Source of the DNA: a virus
Taxonomy: Duplodnaviria > Heunggongvirae > Uroviricota > Caudoviricetes
Virus record (IMG/VR): IMGVR_UViG_3300022692_000031
Coordinates: 1 to 5,945 of that record
Reading direction: 5' to 3' (one strand)
Length of the DNA stretch: 5,945 nt
In this document: positions 209 to 5,945 of the stretch, one piece after another
Numbering within the stretch: the stretch's first letter is position 1
Layout: each line of letters starts with the position of its first letter
Position numbers and translations under genes: made by a program
Notes under the pieces: model-generated
What the model saw: only the letters and a program-made list of their open reading frames with translations
The model's database searches: none
What the model was told of the DNA's origin: nothing

Positions 209-279
209 CCTGGCATTCTGGTTTACAATTCGCACGTCAGCCTGAACAACTGGCACCTGCTGCGTCACCGGAGATCCCG

Positions 280-549
280 ATGGCGCACGATACCAGATTG
301 CACAATTCTGCCGACCTTGCCAGCAGGCATGGGCGGCGTTCTCACACATTCAAATCTGACTGGTTCCAGCATGACCCGTGCACTGAAGAACAGGCCGAAT
401 GGCTGATTCAGTGCTACCGCAGACGTGGTTACGAGTTTCAGAAAGATCTCAGCTTCGATCGTCGTCACTGGATAATCTCCGTCAGGCTCCCTTATTCCGA
501 ACGCCCACCGCGTCCGTCCCGCACATTCCAGCAGCGCATCTGGAGGTAA
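280..549 (+). CDS. Hypothetical small protein (89 aa); Rem-like by position between hok and the DUF968 gene
   Basis: ORF with GGAG 6 nt upstream of the ATG. Its TAA stop (547-549) abuts the GTG start of the next gene at 551, consistent with translational coupling. Assignment rests on synteny with the Qin prophage order hokD-rem-ydfU only; I do not recognise the sequence. Confidence 0.4.
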   Translation: MAHDTRLHNSADLASRHGRRSHTFKSDWFQHDPCTEEQAEWLIQCYRRRGYEFQKDLSFDRRHWIISVRLPYSERPPRPSRTFQQRIWR

Positions 550-550
550 C

Positions 551-1600
551 GTGCGGGTATTACTTCGACCTGTTCTGGTACCGGAACTCGGGATGGTGCT
601 CCTTAAGCCGGGCCGTGAATCAATGTCAGCATTCCATAACGGCAGAATATTGGTGGAGCCGGAACCGAAAAACATGCGCGGTCTGCCGTCCGGAGTCGTT
701 CCTGCCGTTCGCCAGCCGCTGGCAGAGGATAAAACATTACTGCCATTTTTCAGCGATGAGCGGGTTATTCGTGCAGCAGGTGGTGCAGGTGCACTGTCTG
801 ACTGGTTATTACGTCACGTGAAATCCTGCCAGTGGCCACACGGCGATTATCATCACAGCGAAACCGTCATTCACCGTTACGGTACCGGCGCGATGGTGTT
901 GTGCTGGCACTGTGACAACCAGCTGCGCGACCAGACATCAGAATCACTCGATCAACTTGCTCAGCAGAATCTGGCAGTCTGGATGATTGATGTTATACGT
1001 CACGCAATAAACGGTACGCAGGAGAGGGAGTTATCGCTGGCCGAATTATCCTGGTGGGCGGCCTGCAATCAGGTGGTGGATGCACTACCTGAGGCAGTAG
1101 CGCGTCGTTCGCTGGGATTACCGGTGGAAAAAATCCGCTCCGTATACCGTGAGAGTGACATCGTACCGGGAGAACAGACAGCCATCAGCATACTGAAGCA
1201 GCGCACAAAAAATATTGCGCTGCCACTTCACGTCCACCAGCAACAAAATCCACCACAGAAAAAAACGGTTGTCAGTATCGCTGTTGATCCGGAGTCTCCT
1301 GAATCGTTCATGAGGCGGCCTAAACGTCGCCGTTGGGTTAATGAGAAATACACGCGCTGGGTAAAGACACAGCCGTGTGCGTGTTGTGGTAAGCCTGCTG
1401 ACGATCCGCATCACCTGATTGGTCATGGTCAGGGGGGAATGGGGACAAAGGCCCACGATATTTTCACGCTACCGTTGTGCCGGGAGCACCACAACGAACT
1501 TCATGCAGACCCGCTGGAGTTTGAGAAAAAGTACGGCTCTCAGATTGAGTTAATTTTTCGTTTTCTTGATCACGCCTTTGCGACTGGCGTGCTCGGGTAA
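551..1600 (+). CDS. ydfU: DUF968/YdfU-like prophage protein with a C-terminal HNH-like Cys/His motif
   Basis: 349-aa ORF with GTG start and a GGAGG Shine-Dalgarno at 543-547. The C-terminus reads CACCGKPADDPHHLIGHG...LCREHHNELH, an HNH-like metal-binding arrangement. Size and position (hok, small ORF, this gene, then Q) match the Qin prophage ydfU locus; the symbol is given on synteny and size, not on a verified alignment. Confidence 0.75.
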   Translation: MRVLLRPVLVPELGMVLLKPGRESMSAFHNGRILVEPEPKNMRGLPSGVVPAVRQPLAEDKTLLPFFSDERVIRAAGGAGALSDWLLRHVKSCQWPHGDYHHSETVIHRYGTGAMVLCWHCDNQLRDQTSESLDQLAQQNLAVWMIDVIRHAINGTQERELSLAELSWWAACNQVVDALPEAVARRSLGLPVEKIRSVYRESDIVPGEQTAISILKQRTKNIALPLHVHQQQNPPQKKTVVSIAVDPESPESFMRRPKRRRWVNEKYTRWVKTQPCACCGKPADDPHHLIGHGQGGMGTKAHDIFTLPLCREHHNELHADPLEFEKKYGSQIELIFRFLDHAFATGVLG

Positions 1601-1612
1601 AAGAGGTGACTG

Positions 1613-1987
1613 ATGCTCATAGATTTGGTTTTACCTTACCCGCCGACGGTGAACACTTACTGGCGACGCCGTGGCAGCACATATTTTGTATCAAAAGCCG
1701 GGGAGCGTTATCGCCGTGCAGTGGCGCTTATTGTTCGCCAGCAGCGGCTGAAATTAAGCCTGTCCGGACGGCTGGCAATAAAAATTATTGCAGAGCCACC
1801 GGATAAGCGTCGTCGTGACCTGGACAACATTCTGAAAGCACCGCTGGATGCGCTGACGCATGCGGGACTGCTTATCGACGATGAACAGTTTGATGAAATC
1901 AATATTGTACGTGGTCAGCCAGTATCTGGTGGACGTCTGGGGGTGAAGATTTACCCCATAATGCTTGAAGGGCAGGTCAAAAAATGA
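1613..1987 (+). CDS. rusA: RusA crossover-junction endodeoxyribonuclease (Holliday junction resolvase)
   Basis: 124-aa ORF with AAGAGG 7 nt upstream of the ATG. The segment PDKRRRDLDNILKAPLDALTHAGLLIDDEQF aligns with the RusA core [31 protein letters not shown] as I remember it, including the acidic catalytic residues. Its stop overlaps the next start (ATGA at 1984-1987). Confidence 0.9.
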   Translation: MLIDLVLPYPPTVNTYWRRRGSTYFVSKAGERYRRAVALIVRQQRLKLSLSGRLAIKIIAEPPDKRRRDLDNILKAPLDALTHAGLLIDDEQFDEINIVRGQPVSGGRLGVKIYPIMLEGQVKK

Positions 1988-2805
1988 AACTGGAAGATTT
2001 ACCGAAATACTACTCCCCAAAATCCCCCGGCCTGACTGATGCATCGGCCTCAACGTCAAAAGATGCGCTGAGTATCACTGATGTGATGGCCGCGCAGGGC
2101 ATGACACAGAATCGGGCTGAGATGGGGTTTTCTGCGTTCCTTGGGAGAATGGGCATTAGTATGAATGACAGAGAGCGGGCAACAGAATTGCTGACAGAAT
2201 ATGCACTCAGTCGGTGTGATCGCGTGGCGGCGTTAAGAAAACTCCCGGCAGAAATAAAACCGGCAGTGATGCGTATTATGGCTTCGTATGCGTTTGAAGA
2301 TTATGCCCGTAGCGCGGCGAGCAAAAAACAGTGCCCCTGCTGTCACGGAAAAAAATTTATTGAAAGCGAGGTTTTTACAAACAAGATCCAGTATCCGGAT
2401 GGTAAGCCGCCAGTGTGGGCAAAGTGCACAAAAGGCGTGTATCCGTCTTACTGGGAGGAATGGAAAAAAGTCAGGGAGGTGGTAAAAGTTGCCTGTCCGG
2501 AGTGTGGCGGAAAGGGGGAGGTTTCCACCGCCTGTAAAGATTGTCGTGGGCGCGGTGTTGCCATTCATCGTGAAGAGTCGGAAAAACAGGGTGTGCCGGT
2601 TTTCAGAAACTGTCAGCGTTGTGGTGGGCGTGGCTATGAAAGATTACCTTCAACGGAGGCATTTAATGCCATATGTAATGTAACCGATGCCATATCTCTT
2701 GATACATGGAAAAAAACAGTTAAACGTTTTTACGATACGCTGGTGGTGCAGTTTGATATTGAAGAAGCATGGGCAGAACAACAACTGAAAAAGGTGACCA
2801 GATAG
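1984..2805 (+). CDS. Q-type late-gene antiterminator (QuuQ-like) with DnaJ-type CxxCxGxG zinc-finger repeats
   Basis: 273-aa ORF in the canonical position after rusA and before a promoter-terminator unit. It contains the repeats CPECGGKG, CKDCRGRG and CQRCGGRG plus CPCCHGKK. Size and cysteine repeats fit the large Qin-type Q family from memory. Confidence 0.7.
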   Translation: MKLEDLPKYYSPKSPGLTDASASTSKDALSITDVMAAQGMTQNRAEMGFSAFLGRMGISMNDRERATELLTEYALSRCDRVAALRKLPAEIKPAVMRIMASYAFEDYARSAASKKQCPCCHGKKFIESEVFTNKIQYPDGKPPVWAKCTKGVYPSYWEEWKKVREVVKVACPECGGKGEVSTACKDCRGRGVAIHREESEKQGVPVFRNCQRCGGRGYERLPSTEAFNAICNVTDAISLDTWKKTVKRFYDTLVVQFDIEEAWAEQQLKKVTR

Positions 2806-2810
2806 CTTTG

Positions 2811-2838
2811 TTGATTTTTCCCGAATCTGTGGTAAATT
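2811..2838 (+). promoter_or_regulatory. Candidate late promoter PR' (-35 TTGATT, 16-bp spacer, extended -10 TGgTAAATT)
   Basis: Sigma-70-like hexamers read directly, immediately downstream of the Q stop and about 50 nt upstream of the terminator at 2888-2909. This is the expected PR'-tR' arrangement of lambdoid late control. Confidence 0.35.
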
Positions 2839-2887
2839 TGCCCTAACGATGGGCGTTTTATGCCTGACGTTAGAAGATTTTTTACAC

Positions 2888-2909
2888 CCCGCCGCCTGGC
2901 GGGTTTTTT
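2888..2909 (+). terminator. Rho-independent terminator, candidate tR'
   Basis: Stem CCCGCC, loop GCCT, stem GGCGGG, followed by TTTTTTAT. Confidence 0.6.
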
Positions 2910-3031
2910 ATGACTGAAATCGCGTCAGTACAGTAAACGCGCTGGTGGCGGTGAATACCGGTCTTTCAGCTTGCTGGCTTTTTTGACAAGAGTTATTGGT
3001 GTGTCACGTTAACCGAAAAAGGGAAAAAGAC

Positions 3032-3229
3032 ATGCTGAAACAGCAGGATATGACAGAAACTGCCAGAGCAGTGTTTAATGAATTAAGCGTCACCGAACCG
3101 GCGACAGTCGGGGAGATTGCGCAGAATACTTACCTTTCACGCGAACGCTGCCAGTTAATACTGACCCAGCTTGTTATGGCGGGTCTGGCAGACTATCAGT
3201 TCGGTTGTTACAGACGCCTTCGGTCCTGA
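3032..3229 (+). CDS. Small (65 aa) putative winged-helix DNA-binding protein, PapI/FaeA-like pattern
   Basis: ATG at 3032 preceded by a purine-rich AAGGGAAAAAG. The segment TVGEIAQNTYLSRERCQLILTQLVMAGL resembles the helix-turn-helix region of the small PapI/FaeA family (compare [28 protein letters not shown]) from memory. Confidence 0.5.
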   Translation: MLKQQDMTETARAVFNELSVTEPATVGEIAQNTYLSRERCQLILTQLVMAGLADYQFGCYRRLRS

Positions 3230-3240
3230 AGGCTTTTTTA
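3216..3240 (+). terminator. Strong Rho-independent terminator overlapping the stop codon of the small ORF
   Basis: Perfect stem GCCTTC/GAAGGC with loop GGTCCT, followed by TTTTTTATTT. The TGA stop at 3227-3229 lies inside the hairpin. Confidence 0.65.
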
Positions 3241-3242
3241 TT

Positions 3243-3252
3243 TGTGGTAAAT
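3243..3252 (+). promoter_or_regulatory. Second copy of the 10-mer TGTGGTAAAT (extended -10-like element)
   Basis: The same 10-mer occurs at 2828-2837 inside the PR' candidate. This copy sits just after the terminator and upstream of the methyltransferase gene. Confidence 0.25.
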
Positions 3253-3328
3253 GGGCGGCTGGTGGGTGTTAGGGGCACTCACCAGCCATCTGCTCATGCG
3301 TCTGGATCACAAGCAAACCTCAGGCCCA

Positions 3329-3347
3329 CTGCTTTGCGCAAAAGCAG
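3329..3347 (+). promoter_or_regulatory. Near-perfect dyad CTGCTTTGCGCAAAAGCAG about 35 bp upstream of the methyltransferase start
   Basis: Inverted repeat read directly from the sequence, with 7-bp arms and one unpaired A. It could be an operator or an RNA hairpin. Confidence 0.3.
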
Positions 3348-3379
3348 AATGAGCCTATCAGAGACAGGCTTAATGATCC

Positions 3380-4438
3380 ATGCTTAACACTGTAAAAATA
3401 TCCAGTTGTGAGTTAATCAACGCCGACTGCCTGGAATTTATCCGGTCGTTACCCGAAAATTCTGTTGACCTGATAGTCACGGATCCGCCGTACTTTAAAG
3501 TGAAGCCTGAGGGCTGGGATAACCAGTGGAAGGGCGACGATGATTACCTGAAGTGGCTGGACCAGTGTCTTGCGCAGTTCTGGCGGGTGCTGAAACCTGC
3601 CGGAAGTCTTTACCTGTTCTGTGGCCATCGCCTGGCATCTGACATTGAAATCATGATGCGTGAACGCTTCAGTGTGCTGAACCATATTATCTGGGCGAAG
3701 CCGTCCGGACGCTGGAACGGGTGCAACAAGGAAAGCCTGAGGGCGTATTTCCCCGCCACAGAGCGCATTCTGTTCGCGGAACATTATCAGGGGCCGTATC
3801 GTCCGAAAGATGCCGGGTATGAGGCGAAGGGCAGGGCACTGAAACAGCATGTGATGGCACCGCTGATTGCTTACTTTCGTGATGCGCGTGCTGCCCTGGG
3901 GATAACGGCAAAACAGATTGCTGATGCCACAGGAAAGAAAAACATGGTGTCGCACTGGTTCAGTGCCAGTCAGTGGCAGTTACCGAACGAAAGCGATTAT
4001 CTGAAATTACAGGTGCTGTTTGCCCGGGTGGCAGAAGAGAAGCATCAGCGGGGTGAACTGGAAAAGCCCCACCACCAGCTGCTGGAGACGTATACTTCAC
4101 TGAACCGGCAGTATGCGGAACTGCAGAGTGAATATAAGCATCTGCGGCGGTATTTTGGCGTGACGGCGCAGGTGCCGTACACGGATGTGTGGACGCATAA
4201 ACCGGTGCAGTACTATCCCGGGAAACATCCGTGCGAAAAACCGGCAGAAATGCTGCAGCAGATAATCAGCGCGAGCAGTCGTCCGGGTGACCTGGTTGCA
4301 GATTTTTTCATGGGGTCGGGTTCGACAGTCAAAGCCGCGATGGCGCTGGGGCGGCGTGCAACTGGCGTTGAGCTGGAGACTGAACGTTTTGAGCAGACGG
4401 TCAGAGAAGTTCAGGATTTAGTCAGTCAGAACGGATGA
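3380..4438 (+). CDS. DNA methyltransferase, beta-class amino-methyltransferase (probably N6-adenine), with no restriction partner in the window
   Basis: 352-aa ORF. The catalytic motif IV DPPY (LIVTDPPYF) is near the N-terminus and the SAM-binding motif I FxGxG (DFFMGSGST) near the C-terminus, the beta-class order seen in CcrM, HinfI and RsrI methyltransferases. Confidence 0.9.
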   Translation: MLNTVKISSCELINADCLEFIRSLPENSVDLIVTDPPYFKVKPEGWDNQWKGDDDYLKWLDQCLAQFWRVLKPAGSLYLFCGHRLASDIEIMMRERFSVLNHIIWAKPSGRWNGCNKESLRAYFPATERILFAEHYQGPYRPKDAGYEAKGRALKQHVMAPLIAYFRDARAALGITAKQIADATGKKNMVSHWFSASQWQLPNESDYLKLQVLFARVAEEKHQRGELEKPHHQLLETYTSLNRQYAELQSEYKHLRRYFGVTAQVPYTDVWTHKPVQYYPGKHPCEKPAEMLQQIISASSRPGDLVADFFMGSGSTVKAAMALGRRATGVELETERFEQTVREVQDLVSQNG

Positions 4439-4478
4439 TATTGCAGGATTAGTTACGTACCGTTATTATCCTGCGCCC

Positions 4479-4554
4479 GGCCCTTTAGCTCAGTGGTGAG
4501 AGCGAGCGACTCATAATCGCCAGGTCGCTGGTTCAAATCCAGCAAGGGCCACCA
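4479..4554 (+). tRNA. tRNA with anticodon CAU, ileX/ileZ-like (tRNA-Ile2, lysidine type; an anticodon-only caller would say Met)
   Basis: Manually folded 76-nt cloverleaf: acceptor GGCCCTT/AAGGGCC, D-stem GCTC/GAGC, anticodon loop CTCATAA, T-arm GCTGG-TTCAAAT-CCAGC, encoded CCA. The overall sequence closely resembles E. coli ileX as I remember it. Confidence 0.85.
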
Positions 4555-4563
4555 TATCACATA

Positions 4564-4640
4564 CCGCCATTAGCTCATCGGGATAGAGCGCCAGCCTTCG
4601 AAGCTGGCTGCGCGGGGTTCGAGTCCTCGATGGCGGTCCA
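4564..4640 (+). tRNA. tRNA-Arg, anticodon UCG
   Basis: Manually folded 77-nt cloverleaf: acceptor CCGCCAT/ATGGCGG, D-stem GCTC/GAGC, anticodon stem CCAGC/GCTGG with loop CTTCGAA, T-arm CGGGG-TTCGAGT-CCTCG, encoded CCA. The 5' C1 is unusual but pairs with G72. Confidence 0.75.
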
Positions 4641-4696
4641 TTATCTGCATTATGCGTTGTTGGTTCTGATGAGTGAATCATTGTCTTTTGAGCAAC

Positions 4697-4718
4697 AGGC
4701 TATCATATAAGATAGCCT
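4697..4718 (+). other. Perfect 8-bp inverted repeat AGGCTATC-ATATAA-GATAGCCT downstream of the tRNAs
   Basis: Read directly from the sequence. No immediate T-tract; it may be a processing or regulatory hairpin or a protein-binding dyad. Confidence 0.3.
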
Positions 4719-4918
4719 CAGACTTCCTTGTTTATTCTCGCCGGATGCTTCGTAGATATTTGCAGGCATCTGTATGCAGGGGTATTATTGCGGCATATAT
4801 CATCCGGAAAAATAAAAACTACATGCTGATCCGGAGATGATAGTTACAAGTCCTCCCGGATCCCGCATATTTACTATATTTTATAGATAATTGTTCTTGT
4901 TAATATGGAGATGGATAA

Positions 4919-5347
4919 ATGTATTGCCGTGCTGTACCGGTTCTTGTTTTGATATTAGCCAGTCTGACAACTGGCTGCACAAAAGATGTATCGACAAATA
5001 ATCATGATGCTTCTCTGTATCACTCAGATAAATTAATAAAGTCGCAAAATTTGAGCTCATCGGAACGTACCCCTGATGCCAGTGAAGAAATCCGGCAGTA
5101 TGCCATTCAGGTCAGGAAAGCCATAGAAGAACAGTTAAAGGATGCGAGTAAGTATTCAGGAAAAGAGTGTTCACTGAGAATGTATATGGCCCCGAATGGT
5201 CTTCTGCTACAGGTTAAAAGAGAAAGCGGTGATCCCGATTTATGTCGTGAAGCGATGAATGCAGTAAAGAATGCTGATATACCATCACCACCGTCTTCAG
5301 GAGTATATAAAGCATTTAGAAATGGCGTGCTGGATTTTAAACTCTGA
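4919..5347 (+). CDS. Putative secreted lipoprotein homologous to TolA C-terminal domain III
   Basis: 142-aa ORF with GGAG 8 nt upstream of the ATG. The N-terminus has a hydrophobic signal (AVPVLVLILASL) followed by LTTGC, a lipobox-like cysteine. Residues about 60-142 align at roughly 50 percent identity with my recollection of the E. coli TolA C-terminus (YAGQIKSAIESKFYDASSYAGKTCTLRIKLAPDGMLLDIKPEGGDPALCQAALAAAKLAKIPKPPSQAVYEVFKNAPLDFKP), including both cysteines. Confidence 0.8.
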   Translation: MYCRAVPVLVLILASLTTGCTKDVSTNNHDASLYHSDKLIKSQNLSSSERTPDASEEIRQYAIQVRKAIEEQLKDASKYSGKECSLRMYMAPNGLLLQVKRESGDPDLCREAMNAVKNADIPSPPSSGVYKAFRNGVLDFKL

Positions 5348-5350
5348 CAG

Positions 5351-5380
5351 GGGGAGAAGATTTTCTCCTGTCCTGATGAT
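5351..5380 (+). terminator. Weak terminator-like hairpin just after the lipoprotein stop
   Basis: Stem GGAGAA, loop GATT, stem TTCTCC, followed by TGTCCTGATGATTTTGG. Imperfect T-tract. Confidence 0.3.
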
Positions 5381-5636
5381 TTTGGGGCGCTGGAAAGATA
5401 TTGTGCTGTGAAGTGTTAAATCCCTCACAATTCAGTAAGTTGACAGTTGCCTGTCAGACTGAGCATTTGTTAAAAAAATTTCGCATGGTGAATCCCCCTG
5501 TGCGGAGGGGCGACTGGTGAACGGTATGATCTCTTTGATGATCGTAAGCGAGAATACGCGGGTTTGGTGTCACCGGGCTGAACTCACCGGGAGGCACCCG
5601 GCACCATGCTCATGGTGATACAGAAATGCGGCTTCA

Positions 5637-5660
5637 GCCCCTCTCCGGAGGGGCTTTCTT
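5637..5660 (+). terminator. Rho-independent terminator for + strand transcripts
   Basis: Stem GCCCCTC, loop TCCG, stem GAGGGGC, followed by TTTCTT. Confidence 0.5.
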
Positions 5661-5666
5661 ATGGAC

Positions 5667-5695
5667 AAAAAAAGCCCGCGCTGGGAGACGCGGGC
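5667..5695 (-). terminator. Rho-independent terminator for - strand transcripts
   Basis: On the - strand this reads GCCCGCG-TCTCCCAG-CGCGGGC followed by seven T. With the + strand terminator 7 bp to its left it forms a convergent pair. Confidence 0.55.
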
Positions 5696-5814
5696 GGCAA
5701 GGAATAAACAATAAAACGTGAAGTAATACTTCAACTGGCGAATAATACCCGACAGTAATCACTCTGCGCAATAGCGTGGCCTTTTTCGAATTGCGGGCTG
5801 TAGTCTCCCTTCTG

Positions 5815-5945
5815 CCGGGTGTCCTGGTTGCAGATTTCTTCATGGGGTAGGGTTCGGCAGTTAAAGCAGCGATGGCGCTGGGGCGTCGTGCAACTGGCGT
5901 TGAGCTGGATACCGGGCGTTTTGAACAGACTGCGCAGGAAATCAG
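5815..5945 (+). pseudogene. Decayed 3' fragment of a second DNA methyltransferase gene (runs past the window edge)
   Basis: About 130 nt are roughly 85-90 percent identical to the 3' end of the intact methyltransferase gene (4283-4418). In the equivalent frame, motif I reads FMG-stop-GSA because TAG at 5848-5850 replaces TCG; there is no upstream coding sequence or start. Confidence 0.75.

Follow-up and report, generated by a model that had tools for sequence, protein, structure and literature searches.

In Stx-converting lambdoid phages, the stx locus comprises Q, a methyltransferase gene, the ileZ-argN-argO tRNAs, stxAB, nanS-p and the lysis genes. Lambdoid phages are mosaics, and the concepts of morons and 'novel joints' come from comparisons of HK97, HK022 and lambda. 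Prophages of EHEC also encode YdeO/GadX-like regulators of the AraC family, including PatE and PsrA/PsrB. According to a preprint, Stx-like prophages often contain hits to the STnc100/PasD sRNA, and these are associated with esterase genes (bioRxiv 10.64898/2026.05.13.724894). A search of the literature on prophage TolA-domain lipoproteins, or on a methyltransferase scar, returned nothing relevant.

The stretch of DNA analysed here (5,945 nt of the IMG/VR record IMGVR_UViG_3300022692_000031; hereafter the window) closely resembles the stx locus of the Stx2a phage LC567842. The small ORF, the methyltransferase and the first two tRNAs are shared (96.7% identity over window 2889-4661), as is STnc100 with its tail (91% over 5425-5826), and in both loci the cargo lies between the tRNAs and the sRNA. 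The loci differ in that the window has a gene for a TolA C-terminal domain where the Stx2a phage has argO and stx2AB, and in the anticodon of the tRNA-Arg (TCG in the window, TCT in Stx2a). They differ further in that a second module, headed by a methyltransferase fragment, precedes nanS-p here but is absent from Stx2a phages.

The locus also has the properties of lambdoid morons. Its accessory genes are AT-rich and terminator-flanked, lie in the late operon, and vary in presence between otherwise collinear relatives, with sharp transitions, one of which cuts a gene. Genes of atypical composition, bounded by terminators, lie between Q and the lysis genes, as shown by GC content (39-43% in both cargo blocks, compared to 53-58% in the backbone), by terminator-like hairpins (10 observed, 3.7 expected) and by gene order. 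Unlike the lambdoid morons, this locus allows both parental layouts and the exact joint to be identified, and the event appears to have stacked two accessory modules in tandem, with no replacement.

A sequence-only reading of the window had placed two tRNAs, an AT-rich leader, a TolA-like gene and convergent terminators between two copies of a methyltransferase 3' end, and all of these features were found (Table 1). Neither a transposase nor an integrase was present between or beside the copies among the ORFs, the annotation and the Pfam matches. This lack of a recombinase gene, and a repeat consisting of a gene segment with another allele's tail rather than a duplicated target, do not fit the insertion of a mobile element.

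Table 1. Features of the window, with coordinates, strand and evidence or content.
Feature	Position	Strand	Evidence or content
Intact methyltransferase, allele A (352 aa, PF01555 N6_N4_Mtase)	3380-4438	+	ORF; Pfam E 5.3e-44
Repeat copy 1	4283-4398	+	3' part of the intact methyltransferase, codon ~302 on, including motif I (FMGSGS)
tRNA(CAT), tRNA-Ile in RefSeq	4479-4554	+	ARAGORN; Rfam tRNA
tRNA-Arg(TCG)	4564-4640	+	ARAGORN; Rfam tRNA
Segment exchanged relative to Stx2a phages	4662-5424	+	AT-rich leader, TolA-domain gene, hairpin after it; GC 39-43%, backbone 53-57%
TolA C-terminal domain gene	4919-5347	+	Pfam TolA, E 5.7e-23
STnc100 block with terminators and ~150-nt tail	5425-5816	+	Conserved backbone
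STnc100-family sRNA gene	5454-5666	+	Rfam RF02076, 172 bits, E 3.9e-40
Terminator-like hairpins, convergent	5636-5655 (+), 5695-5674 (-)		Between repeat copies
Novel joint, dinucleotide CC common to both parents	5815-5816		Multiple alignment: window, both parents, Stx2a
Repeat copy 2	5815-5945	+	166-nt 3' remnant of methyltransferase allele B; TAG 5848-5850

Cargo exchange in the stx slot

Alignment to the Stx2a phage shows that the resident methyltransferase (allele A) and both tRNAs are backbone common to Stx phages, and not swapped cargo. The two sequences are homologous across the methyltransferase and both tRNAs as far as 4661, and again from 5425 via STnc100 to 5816. The suggestion that related phages might carry other cargo here, for example stx, was borne out, as Stx2a phages have argO and stx2A/stx2B in place of the tolA-like gene of the window. 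However, the repeats do not mark the ends of the exchanged cassette, as had been proposed. The breakpoints fall at 4661 and 5425, which places the stx and tolA alternatives between the tRNA block and the STnc100 block, and a methyltransferase fragment is wholly absent from the Stx2a phage.

The sRNA gene matches the STnc100/PasD family (RF02076), and the block that contains it lies directly 5' of nanS-p in both Stx2a phages and tolA-only prophages of the kind described below (parent A). In a layout that the preprint cited above does not discuss, each cargo module here has the sRNA block as its right conserved edge, and the hybrid locus contains four copies of this block.

Positions 4653-4700 pair with argO at ~63% over 46 nt in a MAFFT alignment, with the first 8 nt identical, while a local alignment extends over only 16 nt. 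This pairing is at most suggestive of a decayed third tRNA (argO).

A probable remnant of a second methyltransferase allele

A repeat finder placed the direct repeat at window 4283-4398 and 5815-5930 (116 nt, spacing 1532 nt, 90%), and an ungapped count gave 12 mismatches in 116 nt, or 89.7% identity, with longest identical runs of 23, 17 and 15 nt. In a blastn comparison of the window with itself the repeat scored 156 bits (E 7e-40), whereas the best scores in 30 shuffled windows averaged 12.8 bits and never exceeded 26.5. Similarity is lost sharply on both sides: the 30-nt flanks to the left are only 23% identical, and to the right 4399-4413 and 5931-5945 are 33% identical. Thus, the repeat that had been described as ~135 nt long at 85-90% identity is real, but its true length at the nucleotide level is 116 nt. 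Past this point the frame runs on in both copies with different C-terminal tails (QTVREVQ... compared to QTAQEI...).

Translated in the methyltransferase frame, the downstream copy reads ...PGVLVADFFMG*GSAVKAAMALGRRATGVELDTGRFEQTAQEI. The in-frame stop noted earlier inside motif I is present, with TAG at 5848-5850 where the intact gene has TCG (4316-4318), which turns FMGSGS (motif I, FxGxG) into FMG*GS. The fragment runs to a TAA 35 nt past the window end, and the sequence upstream of it is unrelated STnc100 tail, as shown by multiple alignment. When the stop was replaced by Ser, the fragment matched Pfam N6_N4_Mtase (PF01555) over positions 180-219 of 221 (E 1.7e-8). It is therefore homologous to this family, motif I included, as the remnant of a gene; with only the last ~55 codons and the internal TAG, it is not a functional member. 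The ORFs that run across it (83 aa on the plus strand and 117 aa on the minus strand) matched no Pfam family. RefSeq lists the fragment as a pseudogene ('internal stop; incomplete; missing N-terminus'). Together these features answer the question of whether it might belong to an intact gene beyond the window, and the view of it as a recombination scar holds. We conclude that the downstream copy is very probably a relic of a second methyltransferase allele, and presumably a non-functional one.

The resident gene is not the source of the fragment. It differs from allele A at 4354, 4378, 4381, 4383, 4384 and 4393, and nearly everywhere past 4398. Its 3' tail is that of a different allele, the one preceding an AraC-family gene that lies just outside the window, and its last 112 nt are identical to the tail of this allele in E. 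coli strain SMBL (parent B, below).

Six changes are private to the fragment (the TAG and five others, at 5822, 5838, 5849, 5857, 5862 and 5868). The first 54 nt of the fragment contain all of them, and the next 112 nt none (p ~0.001 under uniform placement, for a boundary picked post hoc), a clustering for which simple uniform decay fails to account. The donor allele may have differed from the present SMBL allele in this first part. A search of IMG/VR for an intact allele with the private variants found none, as all 10 matches were to the same scar. Two short methyltransferase-like proteins (P0011 and P0019) were considered as independent scars and rejected, both being at contig edges.

Two parental layouts and the joint between them

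Each side of the joint has relatives that are collinear with it and lack the other side. On the left, the complete genome of E. coli strain 99RCEF (parent A) has an intact methyltransferase, tRNA(CAT), tRNA-Arg(TCG), the tolA-like gene, STnc100 and nanS-p, with no fragment, and window 238-5826 aligns to it collinearly in a single HSP. AR_0017 is a second case of tolA, STnc100 and nanS-p without the window's fragment. On the right, the complete genome of E. coli strain SMBL (parent B) has an intact 355-aa methyltransferase, the AraC gene 63 nt further on, and then nanS-p. SMBL is thus a relative of the kind that the earlier reading had proposed to look for, one in which the only methyltransferase is intact and the tolA cassette is absent. 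It is the only complete genome with this layout, which is also found in draft contigs (L006-L011) where genuine methyltransferase sequence continues upstream of the joint position.

The fragment is the first feature of the second module, most of which lies outside the window. The order of this module is a YdeO/GadX-like AraC gene, a 92-aa ORF, three STnc100-like copies and then nanS-p. The AraC gene matched the YdeO model over its full length but below threshold (118 bits, cut-off 348), and GadX also matched. By these models, and by its place in the late region of a lambdoid prophage, it resembles PatE and PsrA/PsrB, a likeness by family only. Outside E. coli, the sole match to it was an unrelated protein in Neiella (34% identity).

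The sequences at the joint are ...CTTCTGCC/ATTGTCC in parent A, ...AGTCGTCC/GGGTGACC in parent B and ...CTTCTGCC/GGGTGTCC in the window, where the slash marks the joint. The window is therefore parent A up to 5816 and parent B from methyltransferase codon ~302. On its left the fragment adjoins unrelated intergenic sequence, with an overlap of 2 nt (CC) only. An abrupt joint with 2 nt shared points to an illegitimate join, and not to homologous recombination. A 7-nt microhomology near the joint (TGTCCTG) was considered as the crossover point and rejected, because its register is shifted by one base against CTTCTGCC. The same 7 nt are present in parent A and in the fragment, and account for the BLAST extension to 5826.

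The AraC region was found in 80 complete genomes, one of which is parent B, and the layout of the window is carried by ~79 complete genomes and 10 IMG/VR contigs. Among the matches listed, all 39 others start exactly at the joint, and 10 of 10 IMG/VR contigs with the private variants of the fragment share this joint and have the TAG. In every copy inspected, which included part of the 79 hybrid loci, the joint was the same, and this points to a single event.

We propose that the fragment marks an out-of-register, illegitimate join of two related lambdoid (Stx-phage-like) late regions in one event, a reading to which we assign a probability of roughly 0.85. Parent A would have given Q, a small winged-helix ORF, methyltransferase A, the two tRNAs, the tolA-like gene and STnc100 to the end of its tail. 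Parent B would have given the last 166 nt of methyltransferase B, the AraC gene, the 92-aa ORF, the three STnc100-like copies, nanS-p and the lysis genes. In the product, the two AT-rich cargo genes would lie in tandem where Stx phages have stx, with the partial duplication of the methyltransferase 3' end as a by-product. Once joined, the fragment had the TAG and the five other private changes. We infer this order from the truncation, as only an intact gene can give rise to such a fragment, and the two phages were presumably co-resident or co-infecting when the event took place. It is conceivable that SMBL is a revertant formed by deletion and does not descend from the parent lineage.

The original proposal, that the tRNA and tolA cassette was gained or replaced by homologous recombination between methyltransferase genes whose copies mark its ends, now seems highly improbable. 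The methyltransferase alleles are indeed mosaic, as the SMBL allele matches that of the window without a difference over 4015-4353 and shows 34 differences from it in the last 85 nt, which would fit past homologous exchange within the gene, and stx is found in the same region of related phages. However, a homologous crossover would leave one hybrid gene, and not an extra truncated copy that abuts unrelated DNA with 2 nt shared. Moreover, the stx/tolA exchange has its boundaries elsewhere, and the fragment is absent from the Stx2a phage and from two tolA-only prophages.

Duplication of the resident 3' end in place, with later insertion of the cargo between the copies, is scarcely credible. It would account for same-strand direct repeats 1.5 kb apart, but not for the allele-B tail of the fragment, which is identical to SMBL and unlike the resident gene, nor for the collinearity with parent A of the intervening DNA, which includes the tRNAs and STnc100 of the backbone. 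In addition, strain N51 has a unit of tolA, fragment and AraC gene without any upstream methyltransferase. The fragment can thus exist without a resident gene, and 'bracketing' by the repeats is not constant.

Possible retention of the fragment and its meaning for Stx-type prophages

Could the fragment have been kept for a function? It might act as a promoter or 5' leader of the AraC gene, or as a homology arm for deletion or exchange of the 1.5-kb tolA block, with SMBL as a deletion product. In parent B the AraC gene directly follows the methyltransferase, so that its promoter could sit in the 3' end of that gene; however, no sigma-70-like consensus was found on the plus strand of L001 8300-8744. 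The SMBL methyltransferase is A-like to 4353 and fragment-like thereafter, as expected for a crossover in the shared 17-nt run, but the copies are only 90% identical and their three longest identical runs are short. Such runs are poor substrates for RecA. In draft contig L012 the fragment lacks the TAG and contains an A-type patch, which could reflect gene conversion, although this short-read draft may be an assembly chimera. Recent common descent alone predicts the high conservation of the fragment, and we consider a retained function unlikely.

A broader reading is that the methyltransferase-3'-end/tRNA block and the STnc100 sRNA/terminator block are recurrent linkers, between which stx-slot cargo is stacked, swapped and deleted as units in a tandem 'moron array', with the 166-nt fragment kept because the YdeO/GadX-like regulator takes its lysogenic promoter or its leader from it. 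There are hints in this direction. In AR_0017 an independent 297-nt methyltransferase 3' fragment heads a tRNA-tolA unit after an ompC moron, a mosaic boundary at 4354 lies inside the repeat, and the same sRNA tail closes each module. We regard this reading as speculative and doubtful.

The out-of-register join is a well-documented example of a known process, and the scar is an ordinary by-product of phage mosaicism, with no new system or mechanism. It is a clean and fully reconstructable case, as public genomes contain both parents as well as the product. The comparison corrects the map of the locus, in that the tRNA block and the STnc100 sRNA block, and not the methyltransferase repeats, are the limits of the exchangeable cargo in the stx slot. 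The fragment itself flags a second accessory module, with a YdeO/GadX-like regulator, mostly outside the window. The locus also shows how one out-of-register join can bring accessory genes into tandem in the late operon of Stx-type prophages, in whose relatives that operon drives toxin expression.

Gene content and the repeated methyltransferase end

The window comes from a lambdoid, Stx-phage-like E. coli prophage, of which it is the late-regulatory region. Of 5,426 complete E. coli genomes, 3,626 matched some part of 3300-5945, and 107 carried at least 80% of this interval at one place.

Features of the window
Feature	Positions	Match
DUF968 gene	551-1600	
RusA	1613-1987	
Q antiterminator	1984-2805	
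Small winged-helix ORF	2996-3229	
Methyltransferase	3380-4438	PF01555
tRNA(CAT)	4479-4554	
tRNA-Arg(TCG)	4564-4640	
TolA C-terminal-domain gene	4919-5347	Pfam E 5.7e-23
STnc100-family sRNA	5454-5666	RF02076, 172 bits
Repeated methyltransferase segment	5815 to window end	

The Q region (1955-2930) is a mosaic patch in its own right. Its 273-aa product combines Antiterm with a DnaJ-type CXXCXGXG zinc finger; the HY220605 locus, 95-99% identical elsewhere, lacks it and has a DUF1133 gene in its place. The winged-helix ORF immediately upstream of the methyltransferase matched TrmB weakly (E 0.0019), and the pairing of the two may be analogous to PNB-2 with M.EcoPA8orf6770P, reported to be a 16S rRNA methyltransferase holoenzyme of an Stx prophage (PMC10810198).

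As the sequence-only reading had it, the 3' end of the methyltransferase gene recurs downstream with an in-frame TAG. Over 116 nt, positions 4283-4398 and 5815-5930 differ at 12 sites; the match scores 156 bits, whereas the best of 30 window shuffles reached 26.5 bits, and the similarity ends sharply on both left and right. In the methyltransferase frame the TAG lies at 5848-5850, where FMGSGS has its Ser codon, and the fragment terminates at a TAA 35 nt beyond the window, as read from the 99.4% identical HY220605 locus (L001); no intact gene was found past the window end. In RefSeq the fragment is already annotated as a pseudogene (internal stop, N-terminus missing), and other ORFs crossing it matched no Pfam family.

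Two parental layouts and their joint

The window layout joins those of two other strains. In 99RCEF (parent A), an intact methyltransferase is followed by the tRNAs, tolA, STnc100 and nanS-p, and a single HSP spans 238-5826 of the window; AR_0017 has the same layout from tolA to nanS-p. In SMBL (parent B), an AraC gene directly follows an intact 355-aa methyltransferase and precedes nanS-p. Draft contigs L006-L011 start upstream of the joint position, within a methyltransferase of SMBL type, and run on into the AraC gene. The SMBL allele (B) equals the resident window gene (allele A) at every position of 4015-4353 but departs from it at 34 of the last 85 nt, which form a distinct tail; the tail of the fragment is exactly that of SMBL.

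The 12 mismatches between the window copies comprise six differences between alleles B and A (4354-4393) and six private to the fragment (5822, 5838, 5849, 5857, 5862 and 5868), the TAG being one of the latter. All six private changes fall within the first 54 nt of the fragment and none in the following 112 nt (p about 0.001 under uniform placement, with the boundary set post hoc). Either the donor allele was unlike that of SMBL here, or the SMBL gene is a later recombinant.

At the joint, parent A reads ...CTTCTGCC followed by ATTGTCC, parent B ...AGTCGTCC followed by GGGTGACC, and the window ...CTTCTGCC followed by GGGTGTCC. The parents overlap only in the dinucleotide CC (5815-5816). With so short an overlap, homologous recombination, which had been proposed as the origin, does not hold, and the joint is an illegitimate one. 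A nearby shared TGTCCTG was ruled out as the crossover point, being one base out of register.

We propose a single out-of-register join of two related late regions, made after the sRNA tail of A and before the AraC gene of B. Such a join would account for the presence of an intact gene alongside a dead partial one, for a fragment that bears the tail of allele B, and for a locus collinear with parent A to the left of the joint and with parent B to its right. It would also explain the two tandem cargo modules, each closed by an STnc100 tail. Where exactly the join fell seems arbitrary, since any join in both intervals keeps both cargos and all essential genes. A truncated fragment presupposes an intact gene, so the order of events runs from A and B to the hybrid. 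SMBL could conversely be a deletion product of the hybrid, which is possible but unlikely: it needs a crossover in a 17-nt identical run, an improbable event by the minimum lengths of homology generally given for RecA. We infer that the join of A and B took place between co-resident prophages or co-infecting phages.

Spread of the joined unit

The AraC region was found in 80 complete genomes, one of which is SMBL; among the matches listed, 39 of the 39 rows other than SMBL begin exactly at the joint. All ten IMG/VR contigs with the private variants share the joint and the TAG, and no intact allele was found among them. These matches point to one event behind the hybrid joint. Two sub-lineages are told apart by 5822 (GTC or GGC) and by the tail preceding the fragment. 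In N51, the tolA-fragment-AraC unit directly follows Q and the tRNAs, with the upstream methyltransferase absent; thus, the unit has moved among backbones since the join.

Site 5822 has three states in close relatives (GAC, GTC and GGC; L014 is among the loci concerned), and draft contig L012 (GCA_000647455.1, 1386-1589) carries a fragment without the TAG and with an allele-A patch. The L012 fragment results either from gene conversion involving the two copies or from an artefact of assembly, such as a chimera. Separately, AR_0017 has an independent 297-nt methyltransferase 3' fragment (L003 4443-4739, breakpoint equivalent to window 4142), which stands at the head of the tRNA-tolA unit, right behind an ompC moron in reverse orientation, so methyltransferase truncations at module edges recur in this region.

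The cargo slot and the downstream module

The repeats had been read as the ends of a cassette in a slot that stx could also occupy; comparison with Stx2a phage LC567842 bears out the slot and not the ends. Identity to the phage is 96.7% over window 2889-4661 and 91% over 5425-5826; between 4661 and 5425 the phage carries argO and stx2A/stx2B in place of the tolA-like gene. The 3' end of the methyltransferase gene, both tRNAs and the sRNA block therefore belong to the backbone, and the exchanged segment is about 4662-5424. After the common ...CTTCTGCC the phage continues directly into nanS-p, without the fragment. The fragment thus stands as a recombination scar in an stx-equivalent slot, but neither as a marker of cassette boundaries nor as a product of homologous recombination.

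A third tRNA, the argO of Stx phages, may survive as a decayed 5' half at 4653-4700: the two sequences agree throughout the first 8 nt and at ~63% of 46 aligned nt, but a local alignment is weak and ARAGORN called no tRNA there. If real, it places the left cargo breakpoint inside argO. The tRNA-Arg has anticodon TCG in all tolA-carrying prophages examined (window, 99RCEF, AR_0017 and N51), whereas the near-identical tRNA of the Stx2a phage (argN position), like that of a DLP12-like prophage, has TCT; this one-base switch would shift decoding from AGA to CGA.

The tolA-like gene, in the slot used by stx in Stx phages, encodes a 142-aa protein that has a TolA C-terminal domain and, in its signal peptide, a lipobox-like ...SLTTGC. 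This cargo occurs in 123 complete genomes, and a ~82%-identical gene in about 770 more, after Q and tRNAs in DLP12-like prophages; in AR436 the latter adjoins a second TolA-C-domain gene. A literature search on the function of the protein found none; one idea is a putative decoy for TolA-binding colicins or phages.

Beyond the fragment, L001 carries an AraC-family gene, a 92-aa ORF (no family match), three STnc100-like copies, a nanS-p-type SASA esterase and lysis genes. The AT-rich AraC-family gene (241 aa, L001 8744-9469) lies 63 nt downstream of the fragment. Its best NCBIfam matches, YdeO and GadX, were each under their cut-off (YdeO: full-length, 118 bits, cut-off 348); it may belong with the prophage acid-resistance and LEE regulators of EHEC (PatE, PsrA/B). 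Both cargo stretches are AT-rich (39-43% GC) compared to the backbone (53-58%). Convergent terminators accompany the window sRNA, and the three further STnc100 copies (L001 10083-10949) are in tandem upstream of nanS-p and diverged (68-73% identical). The STnc100/PasD family has been linked with esterase genes in Stx-like prophages (2026 preprint, bioRxiv 10.64898/2026.05.13.724894). The case adds a new and well-resolved example of the mosaic joints and stacked morons already familiar from lambdoid prophages.
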